A DNA stretch of 24,557 bases from a virus (IMGVR_UViG_3300044966_000262:1-24557), one strand, 5' to 3'. Numbered from the stretch's first letter, positions 857 to 18,687 are shown. Numbers and translations are program-made. Notes: generated from the sequence alone by a model not told the origin.

Positions 857-881
857 TGTGTGTGCCTTTCTATTGGGAGAT

Positions 882-909: not shown

Positions 910-916
910 GGGTTCA

Positions 917-2227: not shown

Positions 2228-2234
2228 TGGAGTT

Positions 2235-3170: not shown

Positions 3171-3176
3171 GGTGTC

Positions 3177-3473: not shown

Positions 3474-3475
3474 CG

Positions 3476-5206: not shown

Positions 5207-5208
5207 CG

Positions 5209-5361
5209 TCAGCGCCCCTTCCTTCCGCCACCCATGCCACCGCCCATGCCGCCGCCCTTGCCACCGCCCATCCCGCCGCCGTGGCCGTAGCGGCTACCTG
5301 CCGACTTTCCGCCTCGGGAACGGGGGGACGACTTCATCGACTTCTTCTTGCTTCCGTACAT
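5209..5361 (-). CDS. Gly/Lys-rich 50-aa basic peptide
   Basis: MYGSKKKSMKSSPRSRGGKSAGSRYGHGGGMGGGKGGGMGGGMGGGRKGR; purine-rich RBS; stop 2 nt before the portal ATG; overlaps the preceding ORF by 68 bp. Confidence 0.5.
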   Translation of the reverse strand: MYGSKKKSMKSSPRSRGGKSAGSRYGHGGGMGGGKGGGMGGGMGGGRKGR

Positions 5362-5557
5362 GGCTCTCTTCCTTCGCGGGCTGCGCCCGCACCTTGGGTT
5401 CCTCAAGCACCAGCGCACGCAACGCCCTCGCGTCCGCGCCGCTGCACACGAACCGATCGCGGTCGCCGACGAACACGACGATCGCGTCTCCGTTGTCCTC
5501 GCACCACTTCACCGAAGCGAGCGGCACGAGGATCCTGCCTGCACAGCGGATCAGCAC
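5294..5557 (-). CDS. Hypothetical protein (87 aa, GTG start)
   Basis: (M)LIRCAGRILVPLASVKWCEDNGDAIVVFVGDRDRFVCSG... has globular-looking composition; the start overlaps the upstream micro-ORF end. Confidence 0.55.
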   Translation of the reverse strand: MLIRCAGRILVPLASVKWCEDNGDAIVVFVGDRDRFVCSGADARALRALVLEEPKVRAQPAKEESHVRKQEEVDEVVPPFPRRKVGR

Positions 5558-5589
5558 TTCTTGCCGCCCTTCTTCTTGGACTTCTTCAC
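5551..5589 (-). CDS. 12-aa Lys-rich micropeptide MKKSKKKGGKKC
   Basis: GTG start overlaps the upstream TGA (GTGA), with GGAGG RBS 7 nt upstream; it fills the gap exactly. Confidence 0.4.
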   Translation of the reverse strand: MKKSKKKGGKKC

Positions 5590-5723
5590 TTGCGGCCTCC
5601 CTTCTTCTTCGCGACACGCTCCGGCAGGCGCTTCGTGGACGAGGTCTTCTTCGCCCACTTCTTCGCCGTCTTCGGCATCGTCGCGAACATGAACCGCTGC
5701 TGGGCCTTGCTCTTGAAAGGCAT
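5586..5723 (-). CDS. 45-aa basic peptide MPFKSKAQQRFMFATMPKTAKKWAKKTSSTKRLPERVAKKKGGRK
   Basis: TGATG translational coupling to the upstream gene; MPFKSxAQ-type N-terminus recurs among small phage genes; below the ORF-track cutoff. Confidence 0.7.
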   Translation of the reverse strand: MPFKSKAQQRFMFATMPKTAKKWAKKTSSTKRLPERVAKKKGGRK

Positions 5724-5833
5724 CAGCGGCCCTTCTTCTTCGCCATCGACTTGCCAGTCTTCTTGGCGTAGGCCGCAGCCTGCATCTTGCCCATCTTCGT
5801 GTACGGGAACGACTTCTTTCCTACCTTCGGCAT
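5723..5833 (-). CDS. 36-aa basic peptide MPKVGKKSFPYTKMGKMQAAAYAKKTGKSMAKKKGR
   Basis: TGATG coupling at both ends; Lys codons all AAG, consistent with genome bias. Confidence 0.7.
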   Translation of the reverse strand: MPKVGKKSFPYTKMGKMQAAAYAKKTGKSMAKKKGR

Positions 5834-5964
5834 CACTTGCTCTTCTTCCAGCCGCTCTTCATGGCGGCGTATGACTTCGCGCTCACGGTTGACTGCGACT
5901 TGGGGCGCGAGATCCCAAGACGCTTGCGACGGTTGATGTTGCCCACCAGCGAGTTCTTCGCCAT
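5833..5964 (-). CDS. 43-aa basic peptide MAKNSLVGNINRRKRLGISRPKSQSTVSAKSYAAMKSGWKKSK
   Basis: Starts 1 nt after the previous stop and ends in TGATG coupling. Confidence 0.7.
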   Translation of the reverse strand: MAKNSLVGNINRRKRLGISRPKSQSTVSAKSYAAMKSGWKKSK

Positions 5965-5965
5965 G

Positions 5966-6310
5966 TCATTGCACCTTCTGCACGAGATTCATCGGAACCG
6001 ACGAGAACGGAGACTTGCCCTCCGACATCATCTTGCGGGCATGGGCGATCGCCTTGCGGATGATCGCCTCGTTGGGCATCTCGCCGTACTCCGATGCCAC
6101 GAGAACCTGATCGATCTCCTCGCGGCTCATGCCCGGGACCAGCGTCGGAATCTGAACCTCCTTGCCGTCGATGTCCACGCCGACCGAGTACTCGGTGACC
6201 TCCTCGCCCGACTTGTTGCGGAACGGGCCAAGCCATCCGGCACCCTTCGCCGTGCCGTCGGCACGCTGCGTCTGCGGGTCGAACCTCGCGATCATCGGCG
6301 GTATCTGCAT
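5966..6310 (-). CDS. Hypothetical protein (114 aa)
   Basis: Start reassigned to MQIPPMIARF, 1 nt after the upstream stop; motifs RADGTAKGAGWLG, TEYSVGV, IPTLVP and GKSPF; typical codon usage. Confidence 0.7.
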   Translation of the reverse strand: MQIPPMIARFDPQTQRADGTAKGAGWLGPFRNKSGEEVTEYSVGVDIDGKEVQIPTLVPGMSREEIDQVLVASEYGEMPNEAIIRKAIAHARKMMSEGKSPFSSVPMNLVQKVQ

Positions 6311-6311
6311 C

Positions 6312-6545
6312 TCAGCACCCCCACCTCTTTCTCGCGGCCTTGCCGCGCTCGCCCGTCCACGACCTCGACCTCGCACAGAACGACTTGTGCCTCGGATTGT
6401 CCTTGTCCTTCGTCGGTGCCTGCAACTTCGAGCCCGTGGCACGGTTGTACCGCGCCCGGCCCTTCGCCGTCAGGCCCGCACCCTTGGAAACAGGCAACTT
6501 CTCCCCGCGACCCACCGCCAGACTCGGCCCGCGCTTCCTAGCCAT
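6312..6545 (-). CDS. Small basic protein (DUF6321-like)
   Basis: 77 aa with GLTAKGRARYNRATGSKL..RHKSFCAR..ARKRWGC, a pattern recalled from DUF6321 phage proteins; start overlaps the terminase stop. Confidence 0.6.
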   Translation of the reverse strand: MARKRGPSLAVGRGEKLPVSKGAGLTAKGRARYNRATGSKLQAPTKDKDNPRHKSFCARSRSWTGERGKAARKRWGC

Positions 6546-8283
6546 TGATGACCTCCTCGTGCTTCAGGATGCTCCCCAACGTGTCGCCACCGTACATCGG
6601 CTCCTCCTCAACCGGGGCTCCCGCCTCGTCGCAAAGCAGCAGCGCCCCAGCACACGCGATCACACGGTCGCCGTGCGACTCCCTCGCCCCGCTCGAATCG
6701 TCACGCCTCGACCCCGCCTCGATGCTGCCATCGTCAAGCACCACATATTCGAGCATCTCGTCGAGGCACTCGCCGCTCGGCACCACACACTCGCCCTGAG
6801 CGATCGCCCGGCTGAGCCCGCCAAGCAGCGCCCGCTTCGCCCGCTTCGTGCTCGTCCAGCCCACCCGCATCGTCCGGCGCTCGTCCTTCGTCCCGTCCAC
6901 CCGCTGGCGGTAGATGTTGCGCCACCCGGCGCGCTCGAAGTCGTGGAACAACGACGCCCCGGGACCGTTCGTCTCCCAGCCGATCAGCGCCTCGCGCCGA
7001 CCACGCCACACCCGGCGCATCGCCTGCGCCACCTCCAAGGCAAGGTCGTAGGTCGGGATGTTCGGATCCACGAACTCCGCCACCACGCGCCGGGCCTGAG
7101 CGTCCATGACACACGCCACCGCGTTCGCGCTGCCCGTCCCGTACGACGGGTCGAGGAACACCACATAGTCCGCCACGCGGTCAGGCTCGCCCCACACGCG
7201 CCACCTGCCCTGCGGCGACGGCTCCAGCCTGCCCTTCACCACCTCGCACCGCCTCGGCTCGGCGGCGTTCTCGTCGCGGTGGTTCGTGATCGCCAGCGCC
7301 GAGAAGAACGACGCGCCGCTGCCGATGTTCTCGGCGAACACGTTCTGCGCGAGGTCGATGCGGTCGCGGCGCGGCAACTGGTCCGCGAGCCACGGCGTCC
7401 ACACATACCGCGCACCGACGAACCCCGTCACGCTGCCGTCGATGTCCTCGCGGTCCTCGCGGCCCGCGCCCTTCTCGGGGTGCTGCCAGTACATCAACTC
7501 GACGAGCCGTGGATCGCCGGAGGTCCGCGCCTTCGACACGAGCCGTGCGTACTCGGTGCCCGCGCCGATCGGCGTCGAGACGGCGATGCGGCACGATGTG
7601 GTGTCGGCGGCGGAGCGCCACGCGGCGTCCGCGTTGTCGAGCGCGGCGAACTCGTCGAACACCACGAGCGTCCGGCGGTCGCCGCGCCCGATGTGTTCGG
7701 TGCTGGCCTGCCCGGTGATCGTCGCGCCGCTCTCGGGGTGACGCAGCATCAGGTGCTGCCTGTACGCGCCGCCCTTCTTGAACTCGTCCGCCTTCGCTGG
7801 CAGCAGCCACCCGGGCTGCGAGGCGAGGAGGTAGTCCAACTTCCAGTACAGCGAGCCGGGGTCGCCCGTGCGATCGACGAGATCCTCGACACGCGACACC
7901 ATGAGCGCCTGCCATGCGTGGAACTGCCAGCCCCACAGCGAGACGGCGGAGAGGAGCCACGACGCGCCCATGTCGCGTGTCTTGCGAACGATCACATCGC
8001 GGCCCTCGCGGACGCACTCGATGATCGAGTCGGCGGCGGCGACCTGACACGGCCACAGGACGAACGGCGTGTGCGGGTACTCGACCGGACGCTCGCGTCC
8101 ATCGAGCGCGATCTCCTTCACGCGGTATGTCCACGCGCACGACTCGCACCACAGCGCGAAGTCCGATGCGAACGCGGCGCGTAGATGCGGCTGCTCCTTC
8201 GCGGTCGCGCCGTACACGCGCTCGCGCAGCGCCTTGATCCGCTCGTGTTCAGTTTGCGGTCGAGGTGATGCGGCCACGCGCAC
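6538..8283 (-). CDS. terL: Terminase large subunit
   Basis: 581 aa; 'LWPCQ' adenine-binding motif, 'VRKTRDMGASW' Walker A variant, 'LVVFDEFA' Walker B, 'VSTPIG' motif C, RNase H-like 'FLDPSYGTG' and 'HGDRVIA'. Confidence 0.93.
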   Translation of the reverse strand: MRVAASPRPQTEHERIKALRERVYGATAKEQPHLRAAFASDFALWCESCAWTYRVKEIALDGRERPVEYPHTPFVLWPCQVAAADSIIECVREGRDVIVRKTRDMGASWLLSAVSLWGWQFHAWQALMVSRVEDLVDRTGDPGSLYWKLDYLLASQPGWLLPAKADEFKKGGAYRQHLMLRHPESGATITGQASTEHIGRGDRRTLVVFDEFAALDNADAAWRSAADTTSCRIAVSTPIGAGTEYARLVSKARTSGDPRLVELMYWQHPEKGAGREDREDIDGSVTGFVGARYVWTPWLADQLPRRDRIDLAQNVFAENIGSGASFFSALAITNHRDENAAEPRRCEVVKGRLEPSPQGRWRVWGEPDRVADYVVFLDPSYGTGSANAVACVMDAQARRVVAEFVDPNIPTYDLALEVAQAMRRVWRGRREALIGWETNGPGASLFHDFERAGWRNIYRQRVDGTKDERRTMRVGWTSTKRAKRALLGGLSRAIAQGECVVPSGECLDEMLEYVVLDDGSIEAGSRRDDSSGARESHGDRVIACAGALLLCDEAGAPVEEEPMYGGDTLGSILKHEEVING

Positions 8284-8734
8284 CCCACTCGGCGAGGAAG
8301 CGCGAGCCCTGCGTGGACTCGCCGCTCTCGATCTTGATCGCGCCGCCGTTGGCCCCGGTGTGTTCGAGCGACACGCGCTCGCGGTACTTGTGCGGCTTCA
8401 ACGCCTTGAGCCGGAAGATCAGCAGCGTCATCGCGCTGCGGTCCATCTGCCGCTGGCCGTGGATCGCCTGCTCGGCAATCTTCTCCAGCCGATCTCCGAT
8501 GTCGCGATCGAGTGCTTCGAGCCGGGCGTGGAACTCGGGATCGCTGCGCCACCGGGACGGCGTGGTGGTCGCGACCCCGGCCATCGCACACGCCGTGTCC
8601 CAGCCGTTCTCGACCAGCGCCGAGAGGAAGACCTCTTTAGCGTGTGCAATTTCCCCTGCCGCGCTCTTGGGAGGACGCCCCGGCCCTCGCTTCTTCAGCG
8701 GGCTCGCAGGCTGTGCTGGGCTGGTCTCGGCCAT
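8249..8734 (-). CDS. terS: Terminase small subunit (putative), with N-terminal AT-hook-like motif
   Basis: Directly upstream of and overlapping terL. KRGPGRPPK, HTH-like 'ACAMAGV...RWRSDPEF', 'LLIFRLKALKPHKYRE' and 'EHTGANGGAIKIE' tail are typical of TerS. Start at 8734 (or 8746) preferred to 8857. Confidence 0.8.
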   Translation of the reverse strand: MAETSPAQPASPLKKRGPGRPPKSAAGEIAHAKEVFLSALVENGWDTACAMAGVATTTPSRWRSDPEFHARLEALDRDIGDRLEKIAEQAIHGQRQMDRSAMTLLIFRLKALKPHKYRERVSLEHTGANGGAIKIESGESTQGSRFLAEWGARGRITSTAN

Positions 8735-8791
8735 GCCGGGCTGCATACCACGATTCTGGAGAAATCTTGGAATTTCGTTGGAAAGTTGGGG

Positions 8792-8820
8792 TTGCACGGT
8801 GGCGCATCCCGATCTATGCT
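8792..8820 (+). promoter_or_regulatory. Sigma70-type promoter driving the plus-strand cassette operon
   Basis: TTGCAC (8792-8797), 17-nt spacer, TATGCT (8815-8820), preceded by an AT-rich tract in a GC-rich genome. Confidence 0.75.
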
Positions 8821-8848
8821 TGTGGTGCATTGTGGTGAAGGAACCACA
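8821..8848. promoter_or_regulatory. Operator-like palindrome 1 plus an extra half-site
   Basis: TGTGGTG (8821-8827), then TGTGGTG-AAGG-AACCACA (8831-8848), over the predicted transcription start. Confidence 0.7.
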
Positions 8849-8877
8849 GGCACTCACCCCTGACCGAGGACACGACC

Positions 8878-9270
8878 ATGACGATCACCGCTGCCCACCT
8901 CGCCCCGCCCGCCACCGTCGAGACCGCCAAGGTCCGCTACCGTCTCGCGACCCACATCAGGTGCCGAATCAGCCGCTGCGTGAGCCTGAACGCCCGCGAC
9001 AACTTCGCGGCGATCGACTACGCGCAGGCCGAGTTCCGGGGCGCGATCGACCTCGCATTCGAGATCGGCGCGATCGACTGGCACACCCGCGTCGAGTTGA
9101 TCGGCATCAACGACCGGATGGCGCGTCTGCACGGCGCGATCGTCAAGTGGCACCGCCGCAAGGTCGCCGAGCGCGGCGTTCGCCCCGATGCCAGCATGGT
9201 CTCCGCCGATGCGCTGGTGGGAGCCAAGCGCCTTGCCCGCCAACTCGACCCCACCACCACCACCGCCTGA
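8878..9270 (+). CDS. Cassette A, hypothetical (130 aa)
   Basis: GAGGA RBS; ATG and TGA both embedded in junction repeats. Confidence 0.75.
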   Translation: MTITAAHLAPPATVETAKVRYRLATHIRCRISRCVSLNARDNFAAIDYAQAEFRGAIDLAFEIGAIDWHTRVELIGINDRMARLHGAIVKWHRRKVAERGVRPDASMVSADALVGAKRLARQLDPTTTTA

Positions 9271-9301
9271 CACCACACGCACCACACACGAGGACACGAC
9301 C

Positions 9302-9412
9302 ATGTTCGCCCTGATCCTGATCACCTTCGCCGCCTCCTGCGCTGCCCTCGCGGCCTTCGCCATCGTCTACCCCATCGCCTCGGACGCCGTCCGCAGCATC
9401 CGCACCCGCTGA
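9302..9412 (+). CDS. Cassette B, 36-aa single-pass membrane peptide
   Basis: MFALILITFAASCAALAAFAIVYPIASDAVRSIRTR; start lies in a repeat with GAGGA RBS. Confidence 0.7.
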   Translation: MFALILITFAASCAALAAFAIVYPIASDAVRSIRTR

Positions 9413-9497
9413 CTGTGCCCTGCGCCTCCCCCCGTGCGAGCGGGGGGCTGGCGCTCGTCACCGTGACGCGCACCACACCCTGACCGAGGAGACACCC

Positions 9498-9965
9498 ATG
9501 ACCTTCATCACGGACCCGCAGATCACCCTGACGCTCGACGCGTACTTCGTGCAGGACCTCCGCCTGCGCTGGATGGCGACTAGCGCCCGCCGGGCGCTGG
9601 CCTACGCCCGTGCCACGCTGTACGTCCGCACCGACTTCTACCGCGAGACGATGAGCCGCCTCCCGTGCGGGGATCAGGACGCCGCTGCCGAGCGCATCGA
9701 ATCGCTGGAATACGGCCACGAAGCCGCGCTCGAACACATCAAGATCCTGACCACCGCCATCGAGTCCGCCGGGCTTGTCCCGGTCGATTCGACCACCTCG
9801 GGCTTCGGCGGCGACATCGTCACCCAGCACGAGGCGGCGATCGAACTGCTCGCGCTGGCCCTCGCGCTGGCCTCGGTGAAGGGCGAGAACCACAAAGCCC
9901 TGACCGACGCCGTCACCCACCAGCAGGCGCTGCTGGAGCGCGTCATCGCCCGAGCCGGATTCTGA
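9498..9965 (+). CDS. Cassette C, hypothetical helical protein (155 aa)
   Basis: GAGGAG RBS; repeat-bounded. Confidence 0.75.
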   Translation: MTFITDPQITLTLDAYFVQDLRLRWMATSARRALAYARATLYVRTDFYRETMSRLPCGDQDAAAERIESLEYGHEAALEHIKILTTAIESAGLVPVDSTTSGFGGDIVTQHEAAIELLALALALASVKGENHKALTDAVTHQQALLERVIARAGF

Positions 9966-10000
9966 CACCACGCACCACACACCACGAGGAGACACACACC

Positions 10001-10432
10001 ATGCCACGCACCACCAAACTCGACCGCCTCCGCGCCGAACGCACCAAGGCGCTCGCCATGGTCAAGGCTTGCGAGGACGGCCACCGCCGTGCCGTCGCCG
10101 CCCTGCCCGAGACTGCCATGCTGGCCGACGCCCGGCGCGAACACGAGGCCGCGTCCATCGCCTACATCCGCGAGCATGAGCGAGCCCAGCGCCGTGCCGA
10201 GATCCGCACCGAGTACGAGGTGCGCGAGATCGACGAGGACGGGGACGCGATCGACTGCTGGATGTTCTCCTCCCGGGAGGATGCCATCCGCCAAGCGACC
10301 CGGCTGCACGGGCGCAGCCCTTCCGATCACGCCGTGACCGTCGAGCGCGAGCGTGACGGTGACCGGAAGACCATTTGGCGTCGCGGCTCCGATGCCGCCC
10401 TCGAAGCATGGGAGGGCAACGCGACGGCGTGA
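10001..10432 (+). CDS. Cassette D, hypothetical (143 aa)
   Basis: Start reassigned to MPRTTKLDRL after the repeat and RBS; coiled-coil N-half, alpha/beta C-half. Confidence 0.75.
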   Translation: MPRTTKLDRLRAERTKALAMVKACEDGHRRAVAALPETAMLADARREHEAASIAYIREHERAQRRAEIRTEYEVREIDEDGDAIDCWMFSSREDAIRQATRLHGRSPSDHAVTVERERDGDRKTIWRRGSDAALEAWEGNATA

Positions 10433-10521
10433 CCCACGCGCAACGCCCCACCTCCCGGCGCGAGCCGGGGGGACGGGGCGGGTCGCGTGACCCGCATTCA
10501 CACCTGACCGAGGAGAACGCC

Positions 10522-11112
10522 ATGAAGACCGTCCGAATCCGATTCACCACCGACACACAGTTGACGATCGATGCCAGGATCGACCTCTCGTCCGACCGGG
10601 GGCACGAGCCCCTGACCCTGACGGTGGCCGTGTCCGTTTGCGGAGATCCCGTCTGCTGCCTCGACGAGGATCTCGAACACCTCCGCCCGATCTACCGCGC
10701 CACGGCATCGACGCTGGTCGCCGCCGCCCGGGCGCTCGATGACGCCCGCGAACTGTTCAACCACGGCGAGAGCGGCATGGAGGATGGCATCCGCGAGGCG
10801 CTGTGGGAGATCGTCCGCAATACCGTCGCCGGGCTGCTGATGGATCTCGGCGACACCGACGGCATCCGGCTCAAGGGTCGCCAGTTGCTCGGCTGCATCG
10901 TCACCGACATCATCAGCGTTCAGGAAACCGACCACGACAACGCCATCGACACGGGCGCTCTCGTGGCATGGGAGCGCGGGGAACTCGATGACGATCAGAC
11001 CGCACGGCTGTTCCAGCGCCTGATCGACACCGGGACCATCGGGCACCTTCAGGGCTGCTACCAGCGCGAGGCCATGCGCCTCGTCGCCCACGGCACGTGC
11101 CGGGGCCGCTGA
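10522..11112 (+). CDS. Cassette E, two-domain protein (196 aa); C-terminal DUF7417-like domain
   Basis: Start MKTVRIRF after the repeat and RBS. C-terminal 'AWERGELDDDQTARLFQRLIDTG..GHLQGCYQR' matches a small stand-alone phage family recalled as DUF7417. Confidence 0.7.
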   Translation: MKTVRIRFTTDTQLTIDARIDLSSDRGHEPLTLTVAVSVCGDPVCCLDEDLEHLRPIYRATASTLVAAARALDDARELFNHGESGMEDGIREALWEIVRNTVAGLLMDLGDTDGIRLKGRQLLGCIVTDIISVQETDHDNAIDTGALVAWERGELDDDQTARLFQRLIDTGTIGHLQGCYQREAMRLVAHGTCRGR

Positions 11113-11139
11113 CACCACACCACACGAGGAGACCCAGCC

Positions 11140-11328
11140 ATGAAGACCGACACGCACCCCACCTGCGCCCTGTGCCTGCAACGCCTCGAACGCCGCCGGG
11201 ACGGGCTCGACGCCCGCGCCATCGGCGTGTGCCAGCCCTGCTACGACGGCACCAGCGACACCGCCCGCAGGCTGCACACCGAGTCCGCCGTCCGCACCAT
11301 CCGCAAGGCGCGAAGCGTTCGCGCCTGA
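11140..11328 (+). CDS. Cassette F, putative C4 zinc-finger mini-protein (62 aa)
   Basis: CALC...CQPC; repeat-bounded. Confidence 0.7.
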   Translation: MKTDTHPTCALCLQRLERRRDGLDARAIGVCQPCYDGTSDTARRLHTESAVRTIRKARSVRA

Positions 11329-11353
11329 CACACCACACGAGAGGAGACACACC

Positions 11354-11584
11354 ATGAACCCCATCGCACGATCCGAAGCGCAACGCCTGTTGCAGGCCCA
11401 GCGCGACTACGCGAAGACCCAAGCGGAGATCCGCGCCCGGGTCGATGCCGAGATCGCCCGCCGCGCCGAGCATGACCGCCTGCACCCGCAGCCGGGCATC
11501 ATCAACTCGTGCCCGCATTGCGGGCGCGACTGCGAGCCCGGGGAGTCGCTGTGCGGCGATTCCGATTGCCCCCGTCACGACTGA
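11354..11584 (+). CDS. Cassette G, helix plus Cys-rich tail (76 aa)
   Basis: CPHC..C..C....C..H; repeat-bounded. Confidence 0.7.
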   Translation: MNPIARSEAQRLLQAQRDYAKTQAEIRARVDAEIARRAEHDRLHPQPGIINSCPHCGRDCEPGESLCGDSDCPRHD

Positions 11585-11608
11585 CACCACACCACGAGGA
11601 GACACACC

Positions 11609-12067
11609 ATGACCGATCACCAGTTCGAGATCGAAGTTCGCGTCCAGTTCGCGATCGTCCACCGCGCCACGCTGAAGGACCGCTGCCATGACGGCGCGGC
11701 GCTCGAAGCGCGGGCCATCACCCAGCGACACGGGCGCGGCGCAGTCGGCAGCGTGTTCATGCTCGCCGACAACGGGGAGTGGCTCCACGCCTACACCGTG
11801 GTCGGCGAGGAGATCGCGCCCGGCCCCGACTACGACGCCGTCGAGCGCCTGAACGCGGACGGGCCGCGCTGGTGCGACCATTGCGGGCAGCGCGTGTATC
11901 CGCACACGGCGCGGTTCGTGCCATCGCTGCGGGTGCCGATCGACTCCGCGAACGCGGGCGAGAGCGCCATGCTCTGCCGCAAGTGCCATGCAACCCACGA
12001 GGAAGGCGGCACGTTGCTCGCCGACCGCGACCCCATCACGGGAGCCGAGTACGGCTCGCTCACCTGA
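11609..12067 (+). CDS. Cassette H, hypothetical with C4 zinc motif (152 aa)
   Basis: CDHC...LCRKCH (HNH-like zinc knuckle without a clear catalytic core); repeat-bounded. Confidence 0.7.
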   Translation: MTDHQFEIEVRVQFAIVHRATLKDRCHDGAALEARAITQRHGRGAVGSVFMLADNGEWLHAYTVVGEEIAPGPDYDAVERLNADGPRWCDHCGQRVYPHTARFVPSLRVPIDSANAGESAMLCRKCHATHEEGGTLLADRDPITGAEYGSLT

Positions 12068-12093
12068 CCCAACACACTCACGAGGAGAACGCC

Positions 12094-12549
12094 ATGAAGA
12101 CCATCACGATCAAGACCGCCAACGCCTGCCACCCGCTCGCACCCGCCGTGCTTCGCCAACTGGGCGGGGGGAGGGAGGCGATCAGCGCCGCCCTCGACGC
12201 CGCCAAGCACGGTGCCGACGCCGGGTTCCCCGGGTTCACCTACTGCGCCGACACCACGGCATTCGCCATTCGCAACCGCCTGAACATCGGCTACTCGCTG
12301 GCCCAGCAGGCGGAGGAACTCGGCGAGGACGGCCCGGTGTCGCTGGTGCGCGAGTTCCGGTGCCTGAACGACCTCTCCAAGACCGACCGCCTGCCGTCCG
12401 AGCGGGCGATCGCACTCGCCATCTACGGCGGGCGCATCCGCCCCGGCGACGACGACCTCGCCGACGAGGTGGGCTACATCCTCAACGCCATCGCATGGTG
12501 GGCGCTCGAAGAGGTCGGTCGCGCCATCGAGGCGGAGGCGGAGCGATGA
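12094..12549 (+). CDS. Cassette I, DUF7222-like protein (151 aa)
   Basis: Start MKTITIK after the repeat. 'HGADAGFPGFTYCADT' and 'NAIAWWALEEV' match a widespread phage family recalled as DUF7222. Confidence 0.7.
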   Translation: MKTITIKTANACHPLAPAVLRQLGGGREAISAALDAAKHGADAGFPGFTYCADTTAFAIRNRLNIGYSLAQQAEELGEDGPVSLVREFRCLNDLSKTDRLPSERAIALAIYGGRIRPGDDDLADEVGYILNAIAWWALEEVGRAIEAEAER

Positions 12550-12644
12550 GCCGCCTCGCACTCGCCGTCACGCTTTCGTTTCACTTCGCCCGGCTCGCCC
12601 GGGTCCGCACCACACGCGGCAGCAGCCGCAGGAGACACTCGTGA
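12546..12644 (+). CDS. Cassette J, 32-aa peptide (uncertain)
   Basis: ATGA overlap with cassette I, GGAGG upstream, GTGA overlap with K; its 3' half is a degenerate junction repeat. Confidence 0.4.
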   Translation: MSRLALAVTLSFHFARLARVRTTRGSSRRRHS

Positions 12645-13015
12645 AGTACCTCGTTTCGTTCGTTTCGCTCGCCCTCGTCGCCGCCCCGTCGGCGGCGCAG
12701 GATCTCGCCATCCCCGTCGGCAGCACGTGGTTCGTGAATGGCAAGCCCGTGTCGGACTTCGGCTGGTTCGTCATGTGGCCGGGCGGGGCGGTCAACCGCT
12801 ACCCGGGCGGGATGATCGGCGGGCACGGGCTCGACACGGTCCCGGGCATCCTGCCGGGCAACCCGTGGGGGCTGGCCCCCGTTTCCCCAGCAGCGGCCCT
12901 AGGATCGCCTAGGATCGATCCGCAGCCGTGGTACGGGCCTCCGGCCATCGCCGAGCCCCTGACGCGCTGGAACGGTCCTAGCGCCTTTGACGCGAGCCTC
13001 TCGTGGCGGTGGTGA
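12641..13015 (+). CDS. Cassette K, putative exported Pro/Gly/Trp-rich protein (124 aa)
   Basis: GTG start with AGGAG RBS; signal-peptide-like MKYLVSFVSLALVAAPSAA/QD. Confidence 0.6.
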   Translation: MKYLVSFVSLALVAAPSAAQDLAIPVGSTWFVNGKPVSDFGWFVMWPGGAVNRYPGGMIGGHGLDTVPGILPGNPWGLAPVSPAAALGSPRIDPQPWYGPPAIAEPLTRWNGPSAFDASLSWRW

Positions 13016-13080
13016 CCCGGTCACCCGTCCGATCCAACCTCCTCGGGCCGTAAGTCCCTACGACGGGATCCCTTACGGCA

Positions 13081-13118
13081 GGCAGCGCCCGGTGTCATGG
13101 CCGGGCGTTGCTGTTTCT
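13081..13118 (+). terminator. Intrinsic terminator closing the cassette operon
   Basis: GGCAGCGCCCGG-TGTCATGG-CCGGGCGTTGCT then GTTTCT; G-U pairs valid on the plus strand; lies at the convergence with minus-strand genes. Confidence 0.65.
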
Positions 13119-13166
13119 ATGCCCGGACGCGACCGGGGCTCGCGCCCATAGCCACGAGGCACCGGG

Positions 13167-13583
13167 CTAGAAGACCTTGAACGCCTCGACCGGGATCAGC
13201 GCCACGCGCTCGATGTCGGCGGGGTCGTTTCGGTCCCGGCGGCCCCCGGCGGCCACCTCGTGGGGGGCGTCGGCAAGGTTCACCCAGCCCCGGGCATCGG
13301 ACCACGAGACGAGGAGGATGGGTGCGATGGTCCGGGCGGACGCCTCGGCGAGCATGGCCTCGACCTTCGCGTGGCTGATGAGGTAGGTGGGGTAGGCGTT
13401 GATGCCGTTCGTGCGGCACTTCACCTCGACGATCGCGACCACGTCGCCGTCGAGGGTGGCCTCGAAGTCCCAGTTGCAGAGCGGCGGGCACTCGTGGGCT
13501 TGGCACCCGTAGGACTGGCAGAACCAGCCCATGACGGTGCGCTGCCTGTTCCGGTCCTCGGCTCGTTCGTAGGTGGGTCGCAT
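13167..13583 (-). CDS. PD-(D/E)XK-family nuclease-like protein
   Basis: 'WDF...IVEVKCR' D...ExK motif; start at MRPTYER (13583), with an alternative GTG at 13628. Confidence 0.65.
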   Translation of the reverse strand: MRPTYERAEDRNRQRTVMGWFCQSYGCQAHECPPLCNWDFEATLDGDVVAIVEVKCRTNGINAYPTYLISHAKVEAMLAEASARTIAPILLVSWSDARGWVNLADAPHEVAAGGRRDRNDPADIERVALIPVEAFKVF

Positions 13584-13640
13584 GGAAAGGGATCCCGACG
13601 GCCAAACGCCGGGATCCCATAGGCCCACGCTTCGGGTGCG

Positions 13641-14033
13641 TCAGTCACCGTGGCGTGGTTCGGCGGGCATCGTACTGGCCTCGATCTCCAGTAGCCCGCG
13701 CTTCTCGCCGGGCGGCAGCACCGAGATCTCGACGCACCGCACGACGGCATCGTCCTTCCACCACCCGGCGTCGGTGAGGCCGTCGATGTAACTCTTGCAG
13801 CGCGAGAGGGCGTTGTCGCAGTCGAGGAGGCGGCGGGTCGGGCAATGCCAGCGAATGACCAGCCGCACGGCGTCGAGCGGCTCGCCACGAGGCACCGCCT
13901 GCGCGGCGATGAACGCGGTCATGCGGTCGGCGTTCGCGGCGCGGTGGCGCACGACCCAATGCCCCCGCGAGTTCGCGCCCTTCAAGGCCGGAAGCGGCAG
14001 TTCAACGCGAAGGCGGCTGGTACTCGTCGCCAT
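13641..14033 (-). CDS. rusA: RusA-like Holliday junction resolvase
   Basis: 'LPLP...N..H', 'RRLLDCDNALSRCKSYIDGL..AG..KDD' fits the RusA D-x-D-N..K...D...DD signature. Confidence 0.8.
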   Translation of the reverse strand: MATSTSRLRVELPLPALKGANSRGHWVVRHRAANADRMTAFIAAQAVPRGEPLDAVRLVIRWHCPTRRLLDCDNALSRCKSYIDGLTDAGWWKDDAVVRCVEISVLPPGEKRGLLEIEASTMPAEPRHGD

Positions 14034-14286
14034 TTGCGATCCGCTCCATCGCCTGCTTCATGTGCTGGTGGAGTTTGGCGACGTTGCGCTTCGCGACCGG
14101 GCCGCAGGCTTCGAGCCCGCCGAGGTACTGCAACTTGAACATGACGTAAGTCGCGAGTTCGTCGAGGCTTGACGCGGCGAGCGCGTGCGCCGACTCCCTC
14201 GCGATCGACTTGTCGAGTTGGTTCTTGAGGTGCCGCGCATACGCCTGCGGCCCCATCACCGCCATCGTTTCCTGTGTGGTGTCCAT
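14002..14286 (-). CDS. Hypothetical protein (94 aa)
   Basis: Start reassigned to MDTTQETM after AAGGAG RBS. Confidence 0.65.
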   Translation of the reverse strand: MDTTQETMAVMGPQAYARHLKNQLDKSIARESAHALAASSLDELATYVMFKLQYLGGLEACGPVAKRNVAKLHQHMKQAMERIANGDEYQPPSR

Positions 14287-14308
14287 GACCCTTCTCCTTG
14301 GCATGAAG

Positions 14309-14326
14309 TGTGGTGATTGTACCACC
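14309..14326 (-). promoter_or_regulatory. Extended -10 promoter overlapped by operator-like palindrome 2
   Basis: Plus strand TGTGGTG-ATTG-TACCACC; the minus strand reads GGTGG-TACAAT-CACCACA (TGn + TACAAT at 14321-14316); no consensus -35. Confidence 0.65.
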
Positions 14327-14329
14327 TCG

Positions 14330-14360
14330 AAAAAGAAATCGCCCCGCCTTGCGACGGGGC
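14330..14360 (-). terminator. Rho-independent terminator
   Basis: Minus strand GCCCCGTC-GCAA-GGCGGGGC followed by GATTTCTTTTT. Confidence 0.8.
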
Positions 14361-14361
14361 T

Positions 14362-14690
14362 TGCGTTTGCACTCGGCTGGCGGCTAGAGTGCTGGTTCCT
14401 CAACCAAACGCGCTCGCATCATAGCGCACGAGCCTCGCGGGGCGATGATGCCGCAGACGATCCCGGCGCGGTAGGGGATCAGGGTGATAGACGCAGGTGC
14501 TGACCCTACCCTGCGCCAGTCCTTCGGACTGCGCTCCTCGACGATGGCAGCGGCTGGTTGACCCCCAGCGAAATGGTGAGAATCGTCGCAACGGGAAACC
14601 TCGCATGGCTCCGGCCGGGCTGAGAATCCTGAGACCTCGGATGCCCGGGGTCTCGGTGTTCCTGCACCCACCAGCCGAACTGGAAGCGAG
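14362..14690 (-). ncRNA. Candidate structured non-coding RNA (unrecognised family)
   Basis: Only long gap in a tightly packed operon; long-range closing stem 14373-14383/14668-14678, at least five internal hairpins, then a terminator. Confidence 0.45.
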
Positions 14691-15134
14691 TCAGGCACGG
14701 CGGGGGTGCTTCCGGCAGTAGTCGATGGCCGAGGCAAGCGCCTTCGGGGTGACGAGTGCCATGTCAAACCTCCTCCTCACCGCCTGAATCTCCTCCGCGC
14801 TCGCTTCCGCCACCGTCTTCTCCGCCCAGCGTTGAAACTCCTCCTCCTCCGCCTGTGATGGGCCTTGGACGGACACGAACCGTGCCTCCGGCGGACGGCC
14901 GACGGCAGGGCGGAGGTGGGTGGTGCGCTCGCAATACTCCGCATGGATCCGGGTCAGGTCGGGCACGGCCTGACGCACGAGGCGGTGTCCCTCGATGATG
15001 GTGCGGAGGATGTCCTGATGGAGCGATCCCCACCGCTCGTTGAGGATCCTCCCCTCCGCATCGGACGGCTTCCACTTCGGCCACAGCGCCGCCATCAGGC
15101 GCTTGTTGTCGTTCCATGTCGGCTTGTCATCCAT
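14691..15134 (-). CDS. Hypothetical protein (147 aa), possibly a replication accessory (helicase loader/inhibitor-like)
   Basis: Coupled to the upstream gene with GGAGG RBS. 'LMAALWPKW...W...L' only loosely recalls phage loader/inhibitor proteins, so the function is weakly supported. Confidence 0.55.
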   Translation of the reverse strand: MDDKPTWNDNKRLMAALWPKWKPSDAEGRILNERWGSLHQDILRTIIEGHRLVRQAVPDLTRIHAEYCERTTHLRPAVGRPPEARFVSVQGPSQAEEEEFQRWAEKTVAEASAEEIQAVRRRFDMALVTPKALASAIDYCRKHPRRA

Positions 15135-15399
15135 CGCCCATCGCCTCCTCGATCATGTCGATCCTCATCCGGTTCACCCACAGGGGAGTCGCCTCCCCGA
15201 CGTACGCGCCGACCACGTTGAACTCCATGTGTTCGGTCGCCTCCTCCTCGGTCATCTTGTCCCGGCGCATGAAGTGCTTCACGGCCTTGTCGTAGTCGTA
15301 GACGGCACGGACATGGCCGCTCCACTCCCGCGTCAGGCCGATGAATGCGCGGTCGAGCCCCATCACGAGCATGATTTGCTTCTGTTCCTTCGCCATCAT
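15127..15399 (-). CDS. Conserved phage hypothetical protein (90 aa)
   Basis: 'GLDRAFIG...AVYDYDK...MTEEEATEHMEFNVVGAYVGEATP' is a recurring phage family pattern; ATGA coupling. Confidence 0.75.
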   Translation of the reverse strand: MMAKEQKQIMLVMGLDRAFIGLTREWSGHVRAVYDYDKAVKHFMRRDKMTEEEATEHMEFNVVGAYVGEATPLWVNRMRIDMIEEAMGDG

Positions 15400-15677
15400 C
15401 CTTCTCCCGAGTAGAGGGTGCGTTCCAGTTCCGCGAATCCCATGCTCGGCATCCGCTTCACGAGCCAACGATACTTCTCCTGCATCCGGTTCAGGCGGTC
15501 GCAGACGAGCCAAGCGTTGTGGCGGCAGTCGAGGTCGAACTGCTCCTGTTCCGATTCCTGATCGCTGTAGCGCACGAGGTGCCGGACCACGTCGCCCGGC
15601 AGCGCCGCGTACTCGGTGACGGTCCAGCGCGGCAGCGTGAAGCCCTGCTCGTCCGCGTGTCGGTCATAGTTTGTCAC
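15396..15677 (-). CDS. Hypothetical protein (93 aa, GTG start)
   Basis: AAAGGA RBS; overlaps its neighbours in operon fashion. Confidence 0.6.
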   Translation of the reverse strand: MTNYDRHADEQGFTLPRWTVTEYAALPGDVVRHLVRYSDQESEQEQFDLDCRHNAWLVCDRLNRMQEKYRWLVKRMPSMGFAELERTLYSGEG

Positions 15678-15882
15678 AGAAGTCCTTTCTGTCCCAGCAG
15701 TCCCAGCCGCGATCCTCGGCGCACTCACGCGGCGGCTGCGTCGATGCGTAGCACACCTCGCGCCGTGCCGCATCGCGCTCGGCGGTGAGGGTCTCGATGG
15801 TGTCGGCGGCTGCACGCATCAGCGCCGCGTCGAGACCTCCCGTCTCGCGCAGCCGCTTCACGATGTGTTCCATGTGTGTCAT
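15664..15882 (-). CDS. Hypothetical protein (72 aa)
   Basis: MTHMEHIVKRLR...AAADTIETLTAERDAARREVC...RGWDC; GGAGG RBS and ATGA coupling. Confidence 0.65.
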   Translation of the reverse strand: MTHMEHIVKRLRETGGLDAALMRAAADTIETLTAERDAARREVCYASTQPPRECAEDRGWDCWDRKDFCDKL

Positions 15883-16232
15883 GCCAGCACCTCCTGCACG
15901 GGGTCGGAGACGAGCCAGTCGCACAGCGCCTTCGAGATGGTGGCTGGCTGCGTCCACGCATCGTCGCGCTCGCACACGATCGAGAACCTCGCCTTGCGCT
16001 TGCCTCGCACGACCTCGATGAAAACCACCTTGCGCTCGCCGTCCGGCAAATCTTCGAGCGCAGGCTGCACCTGTCTCGCGTGGACCATGCCGATGTCGAA
16101 CGCGGCGATCACGAGTTCCGCCTCCAGCAGCGCCGACTCGTGCGTCGCCTTGAAGGCGATCACGACGCTCGTCAACTTCTTCCCGTCGCGCCAATGCTGG
16201 AAGTCGATCGACCACTTGGGCCTGCGTCTCAT
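15879..16232 (-). CDS. Hypothetical protein (117 aa)
   Basis: Start MRRRPKWSIDF; GGAGG RBS and ATGA coupling. Confidence 0.65.
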   Translation of the reverse strand: MRRRPKWSIDFQHWRDGKKLTSVVIAFKATHESALLEAELVIAAFDIGMVHARQVQPALEDLPDGERKVVFIEVVRGKRKARFSIVCERDDAWTQPATISKALCDWLVSDPVQEVLA

Positions 16233-16558
16233 TCCGTGCCTCCCATCGGGAACAGGGTCATCGCCGTCGCCGGGACGCACACGATCCGGGGACGCCCGGC
16301 CGTGCCCTTTCGGACACGGCCGGAGTCCACGATCAGCCCGAGCGAGCGGAGTTCGCTGCAACGCTTCCACCAGCAGCCGCCGACCCCGGCGACCGCAGCG
16401 GCCTCCTCGTCGGTGAGCCCGTCCGGGTGCTGCTCGAACGCACGGAGGATGGTCTCCCGCTGGGTGACCGCCGCCTCGCGGATGCTTCGATCCGCGTAAC
16501 TGCTGGTCCACGGGTCGGTGACACGGACGCACGCGATGTCAGAACGGGATTTCGTCAT
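16229..16558 (-). CDS. Winged helix-turn-helix DNA-binding protein
   Basis: 'TDPWTS', 'GLTDEEAA', 'KRCSELRSLGLIVDSG.R....GR' pattern of phage wHTH proteins. Confidence 0.7.
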   Translation of the reverse strand: MTKSRSDIACVRVTDPWTSSYADRSIREAAVTQRETILRAFEQHPDGLTDEEAAAVAGVGGCWWKRCSELRSLGLIVDSGRVRKGTAGRPRIVCVPATAMTLFPMGGTE

Positions 16559-17522
16559 CGGACAAGTCCTTGTGCGGCCCGGACTGCGCTGCGCTGGAGG
16601 CGACTGGGACGCGACGCATCTCGGTGATCTTGGCCTTCGCCGCCTTCGGCGCGTCGGCCGGGGGCTGCTCGACCACGATCGACACCTCGCTGCCGACGGC
16701 GTCGTGCAACGCCTCGAACAGGTCGGGGTTCCACACGTTGAAGCGGCCGCCGCTCGTCGTGACCGCCATGAACGGCGACCGCGACTTGTTGTTGGCGACC
16801 TTCTCCTCGACGCCCTCGATCACGACGGTCATGTACTCGCCGTCCCCGTCCCCCGCCGGGAGGGAGGAAGCACCAGCCGAAGCGGCGCTCCCTCCCCTTC
16901 CGGGGGACTGATCAGCCACGGCAGCAACCGGGGCCGGAGTGGATGGCTCGCGCATGGTAGCAGACTGGACCGCCACCTTGAGGGCCGTGAGCCCGGACGC
17001 CTTCGGCACCGACGGCTCCGGCGGCAGCGGCTTGCCCGCTCCCGGGATGGTCTCGACCTCGGTCTCGTCGAGGAACCCCAGCCCGCAGATGGAGAGCGTC
17101 AGTCGGCGCTTGGCCTTCGTCTCGCACTTCATCAGGGCGTTGGCGAGCGCCTCGCCCTTCAGCCCGCCGATCGAGAGGACCGCCGAGGACTCGTCCTCGC
17201 GCCCGGTCTTGTCCCGGCCGCGTGCCACGACCTCGAACAGGCCCATCTCGGCGATGTGCCGCCGCTCCAGCGCCAGCACCGACACCGAGTTGATCTTCCG
17301 CAACTGCTCGGAGCAGGCGCGGGTCGCGTAGCACACCAACTTCCCGTTCAGCGGGATGAACTCGAAGGGCCGCGTCAGCGGGTTGAGCCCGAGGCTCTCG
17401 CACAGGCGGTTGACGTACGACACGCGCTGCTCGGCGGTCAGCCGCGACAGGTCTCCGCCGACCAGCACCTGCTCGATCGACTGCGCGGCCGACTGGCCGC
17501 TGGTTCTCATCAGTTCAGACAT
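16539..17522 (-). CDS. RecT/Red-beta-like single-strand annealing protein with SSB-like acidic tail
   Basis: Start MSELMRT (327 aa) coupled to the exonuclease; 'CESLGLNPL', 'ALMKCETKAKRR..L...GL...DE.E' and C-terminal DDEIPF. Confidence 0.75.
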   Translation of the reverse strand: MSELMRTSGQSAAQSIEQVLVGGDLSRLTAEQRVSYVNRLCESLGLNPLTRPFEFIPLNGKLVCYATRACSEQLRKINSVSVLALERRHIAEMGLFEVVARGRDKTGREDESSAVLSIGGLKGEALANALMKCETKAKRRLTLSICGLGFLDETEVETIPGAGKPLPPEPSVPKASGLTALKVAVQSATMREPSTPAPVAAVADQSPGRGGSAASAGASSLPAGDGDGEYMTVVIEGVEEKVANNKSRSPFMAVTTSGGRFNVWNPDLFEALHDAVGSEVSIVVEQPPADAPKAAKAKITEMRRVPVASSAAQSGPHKDLSDDEIPF

Positions 17523-18372
17523 TGCAGTTCTCCTCTGCTTGGATGCGTGCGAGAGCCCACGACGGGATCCCGATCTCTGTGACGCCCTCGTACCCCTTCG
17601 GACCATCCGACAGGTAGGAGCGGTACTTCTCGACAAGCCTCATCATCGTCGGCTCGAATGAAGCAACTACTTCATCCTTGAACCGATACACGGCGACCGC
17701 GTGCGGTGCCGCCTTCTCCACCACCACGAACACGAAGTGCTTCGGGTCGAGCCCGCACAGGCGTGCCATGTGCAGGTAGAAAGAGCATTGCAGGCCGTAG
17801 CCGAAGTTCCACACCGACCGCTCGAACTCGTCCTTCGAGGCGCTGCCGCTGGTGGTCTTCACGTCCACGATGATTCCCTCTCCTCCGACCTCGACGTAGC
17901 GATCGAACCGTGCCTTCGCCTTGATGCCAGAGACCTCGGCGAAGAGCGAGAGTTCCGCCTGCCCTTCGAGTTCCCGGCATACCTGCGCTGCATCTGGGTT
18001 CGCCATCACGGCGGCGCTCATCGCCGCAACCTCGTCACCTTGGTCCGAGGTCAGCACGGTCTTGCTTCCCGTGGTCATCAGGAAGTTGTCGTAGATCGCC
18101 TTGCCTTCCTTGGTCCGGCGGTCAACCTTGGGTGCCTCGGCGAAGTCCCGGCCCCACAGGTGTGGTGTCAGGACAAGGCTGTGGAGCGCACGGCCGACGG
18201 CGAACGCCGGGCTGTCGGCTGGGTTGGCGATCTCGTGGGCGAGGTGCAGGCTGGTGGCACGGTCCAGCACCTTCAAACGCGATGCACTCATCGCGTCGTA
18301 CCCGTGGTAAAGTGCTTCGGGCAGGCCGCGCTCGATGTGCGGCCACGATTCAGGCTCGAATCTCAAATTCAA
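17515..18372 (-). CDS. RecE/exonuclease VIII-like PD-(D/E)XK exonuclease
   Basis: 'SASRLK', 'GRALHSLVL', 'DRRTKEGK', 'KARFD', 'IVDVKTT', 'YGLQCSFY', 'FVFVVVEK'; TTG start 8 nt after GAGGAG. Confidence 0.88.
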   Translation of the reverse strand: MNLRFEPESWPHIERGLPEALYHGYDAMSASRLKVLDRATSLHLAHEIANPADSPAFAVGRALHSLVLTPHLWGRDFAEAPKVDRRTKEGKAIYDNFLMTTGSKTVLTSDQGDEVAAMSAAVMANPDAAQVCRELEGQAELSLFAEVSGIKAKARFDRYVEVGGEGIIVDVKTTSGSASKDEFERSVWNFGYGLQCSFYLHMARLCGLDPKHFVFVVVEKAAPHAVAVYRFKDEVVASFEPTMMRLVEKYRSYLSDGPKGYEGVTEIGIPSWALARIQAEENCNV

Positions 18373-18388
18373 AGTGACTTCTCCTCTC

Positions 18389-18417
18389 GTGCCGTGTGGC
18401 TTCACAGCCCACGGCAC
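18389..18417 (-). other. Intergenic hairpin between regulator and exonuclease
   Basis: Plus GTGCCGTG-T-GGCT-TCAC-AGCC-CACGGCAC; GTGA (GNRA) loop on the minus strand. Confidence 0.55.
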
Positions 18418-18420
18418 TTC

Positions 18421-18618
18421 TCATTTCTTCTTGGCGGGTGCGGGCGAAGCGGCTTCGGCCGTCGCCTCCTTCAGTTCATGCTCGTACTGGTCGAGCAGCA
18501 TGGAGACGAGCGCGGACTGGGTCCATCGCCCGGCCCGGGCGAAATGCTCGATCCGCTGCTTGACGTGACGGGGAACCGTCAGCGTCGCGTGCCGTCGGGG
18601 GGCGGGTTGTGTGTCCAT
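18421..18618 (-). CDS. Ribbon-helix-helix (CopG/Arc-like) transcription regulator (65 aa)
   Basis: Start MDTQPAP after AAGGAGG; 'ATLTVP' ribbon, 'VKQRIEHFARAG' helix, 'TQSALVSMLLDQY' helix. Confidence 0.7.
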   Translation of the reverse strand: MDTQPAPRRHATLTVPRHVKQRIEHFARAGRWTQSALVSMLLDQYEHELKEATAEAASPAPAKKK

Positions 18619-18633
18619 GAGGCATACCTCCTT

Positions 18634-18655
18634 TCTGTGGTGAATGCACCACAGA
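18634..18655. promoter_or_regulatory. Operator-like palindrome 3 (perfect arms)
   Basis: TCTGTGGTG-AATG-CACCACAGA between the -10 box and the RBS of the RHH gene. Confidence 0.8.
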
Positions 18656-18658
18656 TAC

Positions 18659-18687
18659 AAGGTACGCACCACTCAGGCGGCTGTCAA
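18659..18687 (-). promoter_or_regulatory. Sigma70-type promoter for the RHH-recombination operon
   Basis: TTGACA (18687-18682), 17-nt spacer, TACCTT (18664-18659). Confidence 0.8.

Follow-up and report, generated by a model that had tools for sequence, protein, structure and literature searches.

The Gene Array and Its Relatives

The window analyzed here (IMGVR_UViG_3300044966_000262:1-24557) is a stretch of 24,557 nt from an uncultured tailed lake phage with a genome of about 40 kb and 67% GC, and it is identical over 17,041 nt to the locus L001, whose record, G001, is a complete genome of 40,412 nt. It carries on its plus strand an array of ten genes, nine variable ones (c1 to c9) and a conserved last gene, joined by repeat-bearing spacers, here termed junctions, and located between terS and rusA in this phage and in every relative locus (Table 1). 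All genes assigned outside the array are on the minus strand, including those for the major head protein, the portal, the large (TerL) and small (TerS) terminase subunits, RusA, a PDDEXK nuclease, exonuclease VIII and a 1,909-residue ART-PolyVal protein, which bears out the opposite orientation of the array noted in a first-pass annotation of this DNA. That annotation counted about 11 short, unrelated open reading frames (ORFs); the genes are small and unrelated, as described, but number ten. A 32-codon ORF at 12546-12644, which overlays a junction, was rejected as a gene. A junction unit of 29-41 bp had also been described at most junctions, and six of the nine are indeed short (24-35 nt from stop to start), but two, of 85 and 89 nt, are long and folded, and another, of 91 nt, is degenerate.

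Table 1. Features of the array and its surroundings in the window. CA, CA-rich tract; SD, Shine-Dalgarno sequence; z, folding z-score; L, G and X numbers, loci, genome records and sequencing runs; F numbers, protein families.
Feature	Coordinates	Strand	Remarks
terS, terminase small subunit, left anchor	8249..8830	-	phrog_4044, E 1.6e-10; start codon uncertain
Predicted sigma70-type promoter, TTGCAC-17-TATGCT	8792..8820	+	7/12 consensus
Predicted 5'-terminal transcript hairpin	8822..8857	+	z -2.8; hairpins at same place in relatives
c1, 130 aa	8878..9270	+	Unrelated genes in its place in L004 and L191
Short junction, CA tract and SD, 31 nt	9271..9301	+	Breakpoint 9289 in X14 and X17 contigs
c2, 36 aa, hydrophobic	9302..9412	+	446 other bases instead in X14, X17
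Long junction: predicted RNA rod, alternative second hairpin, CA tract, SD	9413..9497	+	Fold z -2.1
c3, 155 aa	9498..9965	+	Homologs in L019, L020
Short junction, 35 nt	9966..10000	+	L004 homology begins at 9970
c4, 143 aa	10001..10432	+	Neighbors across loci: 4 different upstream, 5 different downstream
Long junction: predicted RNA rod, second hairpin, CA tract, SD	10433..10521	+	z -3.6; L004 has a 94% identical copy, flanked by two other genes
c5, 196 aa, C-terminal DUF7417	10522..11112	+	Unrelated gene between same two junctions in L004
Short junction, 27 nt	11113..11139	+	13-nt repeat, 11116-11128 = 11329-11341
c6, 62 aa	11140..11328	+	Missing in a close strain (34.7-kb and 40.0-kb contigs, X14, X17)
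Short junction, 25 nt	11329..11353	+	11329-11341 = 11116-11128
c7, 76 aa	11354..11584	+	Cys-rich C-terminal 24-28 aa common to two otherwise unrelated families
Short junction, 24 nt	11585..11608	+	End of 93% identity with L040 (TerL 56%)
c8, 152 aa	11609..12067	+	61 aa match a gene in the G004 array
Short junction, 26 nt	12068..12093	+	22-nt identity with junction before c5
c9, 151 aa	12094..12549	+	DUF7222-related via homologs: PF23864 in 13/40
Degenerate junction	12550..12640	+	Hairpin lost, z +1.0; T-rich tail remains of a terminator that relatives have at this point
Last gene, conserved and no variable cassette; 124 aa, N-terminus hydrophobic	12641..13015	+	Family F2/F16 ends 14/14 complete arrays
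Predicted intrinsic terminator	13081..13118	+	Scan and folding place it at 13081-13112
RusA-like resolvase, right anchor	13641..14033	-	Profile matches
Likely Rad52-superfamily single-strand annealing protein	16539..17522	-	Structure model, Atlas neighbors; overlaps exonuclease gene
RecE-like exonuclease VIII (DUF3799)	17515..18417	-	phrog_412, E 3.5e-63

Relatives were collected by a TerL search, which gave 51 loci, 30 of them extending into the interval beyond TerS. Four were dropped as duplicates (L001, L025, L026, L046), five that form one clade and whose genes were missed by the gene caller were set apart (L027, L028, L031, L032, L050), and L188 and L191 were added, giving a final set of 24 loci including the window, with gene calls curated by hand. 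A metagenome scan with TerS yielded three loci, one of them useful, and broad junction patterns run against viral contigs matched 129 and 89 loci, mostly by a single match. Eight of 24 listed sequencing runs, X14, X16, X17, X20 and X22 among them, were examined as contigs. Lake-water metagenomes are the main source of datasets with this DNA; a TerL search of bacterial genome contigs found no relative, and among the matches listed no deposited phage has a TerL identity above about 33%.

Gene Content and Breakpoints

Cassette content had been expected to vary among relatives with breakpoints in the junctions, and this is what was found. The 14 complete arrays have 13 distinct gene line-ups, and 52 protein families (after one correction) are distributed over the arrays of the 24 loci. 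When sharp ends of homology were de-duplicated across 23 loci (the duplicate L006 left out), 39 of 57 were junction/junction, 15 gene/gene and three mixed, while junction zones make up 21.5% of the bases. The neighboring gene changes at 33 of the 39 junction/junction ends, and all but one of the 15 intragenic ends lie within one family.

Comparison of individual loci illustrates the scale of the exchange. L004 (TerL 98%) is 96% identical to the window up to the first ATG, and has only c4 in common with it, holding unrelated genes between the window's own junctions. In L191, c1 is replaced by a gene that is 91% identical in DNA (317 nt) to one in L041, with the homology ending at the stop codon, and the TerL of L041 is about 56% identical. 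The window and L040 (TerL again about 56%) are 93% identical over 118 nt that end in a junction, and L021 and L022 differ in the first gene, which has been swapped, but are 99.7% identical beyond it, and their homology reaches 12 nt into both genes. Within some genes a finer mosaicism is seen: the Cys-rich C-terminal module of c7 (11498-11584, plus strand) is 93% identical in DNA to L040 and occurs in two unrelated families, and some other cassette genes are likewise mosaics with common C-terminal tails.

Strains that are about 95% identical have single genes missing or replaced at junctions. In the long contigs of a close strain from runs X14 and X17, c2 and the top of the folded rod that follows it are replaced between 9289 and 9451, with 446 bases in between, and c6 is absent, with a joint from 11128 to 11349 and 10 bases in between. 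A short contig of lower depth from X14 lies inside c6, and further loose ends and joints at junctions are found in X20 and X22. For excised mini-circles, no junction-to-junction back joint was seen among the rows listed for the eight runs, which were examined as contigs, and these drop rare forms. Reordering of genes, also proposed previously, turned out to be rare, with two reversals against 106 gene pairs that co-occur in at least two loci, and this largely conserved order indicates slot-wise exchange and not integron-style shuffling. The pattern fits slot-wise exchange between co-infecting phages together with junction-to-junction insertions and deletions (indels), and does not fit excision and reinsertion at the promoter.

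Short Junctions and Homology at the Joints

The sequence GAGGAGAC occurs five times in the window, always on the plus strand and inside the array, and nine of the 13 plus-strand copies of ACACCAC are in the array, which occupies 18% of the window. A pattern of stop codon, CA tract, SD and start codon has five matches in the array and none on the minus strand of the window or on either strand of bases 1-20000 of G001. Concentration of these motifs in the array argues that the likeness of the junctions is not due to chance. The four junctions quoted in the first-pass annotation are present at 9963, 11110, 11326 and 11582, and two identities that it reported are exact, one of 22 nt between 10509-10530 and 12081-12102 and one of 16 nt upstream of the starts at 8878 and 9302. 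Across loci (near-duplicates included) there are 125 spacers, 50 of 22-49 nt and 52 of 77-98 nt, which places 102 of them in two narrow length classes. In the window and its relatives the junction element closes with an SD and the start of an ORFan. GCCTGA is the most frequent gene end (15/90), and the commonest protein starts among cassette genes are MKT and MTT.

Four clean single-gene indels lie on perfect direct repeats of 16, 8 (within 20/22 imperfect), 10 and 13 nt, in each case the longest or near-longest repeat available, and when all viable joins of the same junction pairs are enumerated such overlap arises in only 0.9, 1.6, 1.3 and 2.5% of them. The F51 indel was placed by eye, with the rod as anchor, and each of the four events may be a gain or a loss. 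In four replacements homology extends 4-15 nt into unrelated genes; the first 3-5 codons are common to unrelated genes at swap points, and crossover positions include the stop codon, the CA tract, the SD and the first codons. Each cassette was previously thought to arrive with its own ribosome-binding site (RBS), but for the most part this is not the case. The mean likeness of the 24 nt before the start is 11.05 within a genome (n=186) and 9.98 within a clade (n=1218), and it is 7.59 for the same gene family in another clade (n=54) compared with 7.26 for unrelated genes across clades (n=3044), where clades were assigned by hand and the pairs are not independent. The RBS region tracks the clade of the host genome and not the gene, and hence a moving gene generally takes the RBS of the recipient and often its first codons.

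Long Junctions Containing a Predicted Folded Rod

Beside the short junctions there is a second class, not described in the first-pass annotation, which contains a folded RNA rod and measures 83-98 nt. All 35 distinct long junctions fold at z<-2 compared with one of 34 coding controls, and the rod is an irregular helix with a median of 22 pairs over 63 nt, an imperfect palindrome of 60-75 nt with conserved mismatches. The rods are probably not intrinsic terminators, as none of 39 is followed by a U tract, and a role as internal sigma70 promoters was rejected, as a sigma70-like site of at least 7/12 is found in only one of 42 rod junctions, where it is misplaced at 6 nt from the start. A search of Rfam gave two weak matches, far below the gathering score, and no family match. 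In the subfamily of L019, L036 and L040, 92.9% of cells are paired and both partners have changed in seven of 14 pairs, values that exceed those of shuffled and slid controls; covariation is shown for this subfamily only, from an alignment that was fitted to the structure and includes two partial reverse-strand matches. RNAalifold recovers only four pairs from a MAFFT alignment of mixed rods because the subfamilies are out of register.

The L191 counterpart of the window's first rod retains the flanks but has a different top stem, of the L041 type, which also pairs. G-U pairs are common in the rods, which points to a role as RNA. The 3' arm of the rod can refold into a small hairpin, and this second hairpin appears in 39/39 rods when the 3' part is folded alone, a figure that has no control and carries little weight. 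An identical hairpin core of 10 nt is found after the second rod of the window and after the promoters that precede DUF932 in L040 and L044, which suggests that a new 5' end is made in the rod. From the fold and these parallels, the rods may be cut by RNase III, which would release the message beyond the cut with a 5' hairpin of its own, in the manner of the T7 early transcript, although on balance we stop slightly short of favoring this.

Recombination Genes

Neither a tyrosine (PF00589) nor a serine (PF00239) recombinase was found in any of five genomes that are 97-100% complete, and the control searches were positive in 14/14 and 12/14 cases, respectively, in agreement with the earlier description of the system as integrase-free. 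The phage does encode a RecE-like exonuclease, and the gene that overlaps it (16539-17522) specifies a protein whose structure model (predicted local distance difference test score, pLDDT, 84.8) has the order hairpin, helix, three-stranded sheet, helix. This is the order of elements described for the Rad52 superfamily, in which a beta-hairpin is combined with a three-stranded sheet that a helix crosses (PMC11783212). The top 12 structural matches of the model include Rad52, Sak, Mgm101 and Red-beta, which are the longest of them (98-138 residues, Z 5.9-6.8), and its Atlas neighbors include RecT/Rad52 clusters at 0.90-0.91. The protein has no Pfam or PHROG match of its own, members of its family have scattered weak ones only, and the family has no match in PDB sequences. 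Judged by its model, the product is likely an annealase. The gene heads a large unnamed family (7,787 matches among 8,000 scored) that is missed by Pfam and PHROGs and is, on the same structural grounds, a candidate new annealase family. RusA had also been named as a participant in the exchange, together with the exonuclease, which is encoded, and an annealing protein, which is likely encoded; nothing implicates RusA.

Promoters, Cargo, and Neighboring Features

The window promoter falls below the threshold of a consensus promoter scan, which listed nothing, but its position is conserved: 18/24 loci have a promoter-like site 50-60 nt upstream of the first gene, and in two of them it reaches 10-11/12. 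The proposal of a single promoter holds for the window phage but not for the family, as relatives have a second promoter, before DUF932 (11 of 14), and one clade has three; apart from the one at the start, arrays have promoters at no more than 1-2 internal places. Over the 20 nt upstream of the SD region, the leaders of cassette genes contain 1-6 G, compared with 2-12 for core genes, and by prediction most of them are the more open; their CA tracts vary in unit number. At the other end of the array an extra strong hairpin (13016-13080, plus strand) directly precedes the terminator, and the last gene (12641-13015), which is Gly/Trp/Pro-rich and has no family match, is located behind a terminator in several relatives.

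The array genes are likely early. Recognized domains are limited to DUF7417 (c5), DUF7222 (c9, via the 13/40 homologs with PF23864) and, in relatives, DUF932/TIGR03299. Pfam gave no match for 42 of 43 family representatives from relatives, PADLOC matched none of the ten array genes of the window, and an Atlas search with c9 gave no usable match. The promoter type and gene sizes make a function in early host takeover or anti-defense plausible, while the specific suggestion of anti-defense cargo gains no direct support from PADLOC (0/10). A DUF932/TIGR03299 gene with its own promoter is present in 14/24 loci (L008, L012, L024, L040 and others), second-last or mid array, and is absent from the window array; DUF932 has been linked to anti-defense.

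The clade that was set apart has its own array (L027:4290-8000 and L032:12429-15770, the latter in reverse-complement coordinates), with its own junction wording, rods, a small hairpin beside the SD and three sigma70-like promoters (three loci checked for the array and two for the promoters). Within terS, at about 8400-8710, close strains (L191 and runs X14, X16 and X17) have diverged patches with flanks that are 95-99% alike, and such patches between conserved flanks suggest that alleles may be exchanged in terS. The 1,909-residue protein (18684-24413, minus strand) has ART-PolyVal matches in three stretches and is polyvalent-type, a type of protein linked to conflict with the host.

Discussion

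That this is a real array in which genes are exchanged under the guidance of repeats is well supported, and from it we infer a mechanism. We consider it rather probable that the repeat spacers mark whole-gene gain, loss and replacement in a hypervariable operon, likely by the short-homology recombination of the RecE-like nuclease and the predicted Rad52-type annealase and with no integrase. The spacers would have begun as strong, unstructured translation signals and, once repeated, would have become the only homology between unrelated genes. Crossover could then take place either between co-infecting phages, one exchange falling in a junction and the other in a long stretch of flanking homology, or between two junctions within one genome. 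In either case crossovers at spacers would leave an intact, expressed gene in the slot of the recipient, and with repeated exchange the junctions of a lineage would become homogeneous. Crossovers are seen in two zones, one around the stop codon and the other around the SD, the ATG and the first codons. The long junctions would add a conserved RNA rod with a predicted RNase III cut and message processing.

Several findings weigh against this reading. Fifteen of the 57 homology ends are inside genes, the breakpoint events are not phylogenetically independent and depend on hand-curated gene calls, and selection for intact genes concentrates breaks between genes, so part of the excess in junctions is expected. 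Three of six candidate indels (F11, F14, F8) are unresolvable because the upstream gene ends differ, and a strict three-parent overlap test was positive in only one of seven trios. The minimum for efficient Red-beta pairing is quoted as 23-27 bp (PMC3945230), the perfect repeats of 8-16 nt are shorter, and replication slippage or rare events could therefore make the indels. The annealase Z-scores are under 8 and tied with those of dsRNA-binding domains, and the role of the two enzymes in exchange is deduced from the presence of their genes and the known class of enzyme. In addition, a covariance model (R1) built from another rod subfamily does not detect the rods of the window.

One other explanation is that the repeat is a translation-initiation signal only, a G-poor, open CA tract with a strong SD, and that breakage is random with only between-gene joins surviving. 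The G-poor and open cassette leaders agree with this, as does the interpretation given to start-associated sequence (SAS) repeats (PMC3203893), and breaks are found inside genes as well. As a complete account it is nevertheless unlikely, given that the four resolved indels lie on the longest or near-longest repeats, that spacer lengths are tight with no remnants, that unrelated genes have their first 3-5 codons in common at swap points, and that junction wording tracks the genome. A role of the repeat in translation is probably true too, without explaining these joint features. It might also be that junction homology guides the changes by host routes, with slippage for losses, RecA crossover in long flanks for replacements, and an annealase that is incidental. 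Repeats that are short and 200-500 nt apart, CA tracts of varying unit number and long homology on one side in many exchanges would all suit such routes, yet slippage brings no new genes, near-identical segments that end in junctions cross clades (TerL about 56%), and Rad52-like phage recombinases are reported to outperform RecA on short or diverged homology (PMC3945230), all of which makes this account improbable.

The remaining alternative is a site-specific, integron-like system in which the rods are attC-like folded DNA sites for a host integrase or an unrecognized phage recombinase. The rods are imperfect palindromes with conserved mismatches, and the commonest gene end, GCCTGA, is close to an attC R'' box. 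With no tyrosine or serine recombinase in the five genomes, crossovers that fall variously at the stop, the CA tract, the SD or the first codons, most swaps at short junctions that have no rod, G-U pairs that point to RNA, and an order that is mostly kept, this explanation is very unlikely. An integron as such was rejected, as there is no IntI (0/5 genomes match PF00589) and no fixed crossover point. Exchange guided by junction repeats through the phage's own nuclease and predicted annealase is the reading that we prefer. A more far-reaching form of it is a two-tier integrase-free system, in which short and rod junctions would both be selected as standard annealase plugs, a lake-wide pool of at least 50 uncharacterized early genes would cross distant clades and adopt the junction wording of the recipient, and swappable rods would split the message into separately stabilized units, such that content and expression level are both rewired; this is speculative and, taken as a whole, rather doubtful.

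Whether phage mosaicism arises via short boundary homologies or by random breakage and selection is debated (PMC3945230). This family offers an unusually clean natural test, with near-identical strains, indels on 8-16-nt repeats, genome-specific junction wording and a nuclease/annealase pair that can be cloned. It also singles out about 50 unstudied early phage proteins that could be entered in host-interaction screens, as well as a structured RNA element that matches nothing in Rfam. The surprise is limited by the fact that the general mechanism has already been published for the promoter early stem-loop (PeSL) elements discussed below (PMC2839356).

Comparison With Known Systems

No description of the array of this phage family was found in the open literature searched, with subscription papers outside its scope. 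Integrons, which consist of IntI, attI and attC cassettes, have unrelated single-gene cassettes behind a promoter that are separated by related sites. The present array is also a promoter-led series of unrelated single-gene cassettes with related sites between them, but it has no integrase and no fixed crossover point, its order is mostly kept, and the RBS is supplied by the recipient. The rods find their counterpart in the T7 early transcript, where five RNase III signals are described in a precursor of about 7,000 nt (PMC3867540). In both cases long irregular hairpins lie between the genes of a polycistronic message, which in the present phage is presumably early, and the median of 22 pairs, about two helical turns, equals the length given for an idealized substrate (PMC3867540). 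The rods differ in that they are located at gene-swap points, which is not how that account describes the T7 sites, and their cleavage is predicted.

A repeat that is over-conserved at the RBS position before small non-structural genes is known from the SAS and extended SAS (ESAS) elements of Cluster K mycobacteriophages and Microbacterium cluster EF phages, where a longer form with an upstream inverted repeat also occurs (PMC3203893; PMC7302621). The SAS is, however, a fixed 13-mer scattered genome-wide and is proposed there for translation only, whereas here a degenerate, clade-specific CA tract with an SD joins consecutive genes and marks exchange points. Likewise, the ESAS has 17-bp inverted repeats of conserved sequence, whereas the rod stems vary in sequence with pairing kept.

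The closest parallel is provided by the PeSL cassettes of the T4-type phages RB49 and phi1 (Arbiol et al., 2010, PMC2839356). There too, a repeated intergenic regulatory element ending in an SD and a start codon lies beside ORFans in a hypervariable region, and single genes are gained, lost or replaced at the element by crossovers near the SD with no integrase; the authors themselves drew a comparison with integrons. Each PeSL is described as having a sigma70 promoter and a terminator-like stem-loop, the elements as spread over the genome, and mini-circles are demonstrated (PMC2839356). In the present family only the single, misplaced site among 42 rod junctions is promoter-like, no rod has a U tract (0/39), short junctions of 22-49 nt have no hairpin and not enough length for a promoter, the array is one tandem operon in a 40-kb phage, and no mini-circles were seen among the contig joints listed. 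The PeSL phage genomes are of the 160-kb class. With no internal promoter in its elements the array is not a PeSL, but as judged from the gene comparisons it appears to work like PeSL-type shuffling, and it is best described as PeSL-like exchange without internal promoters.

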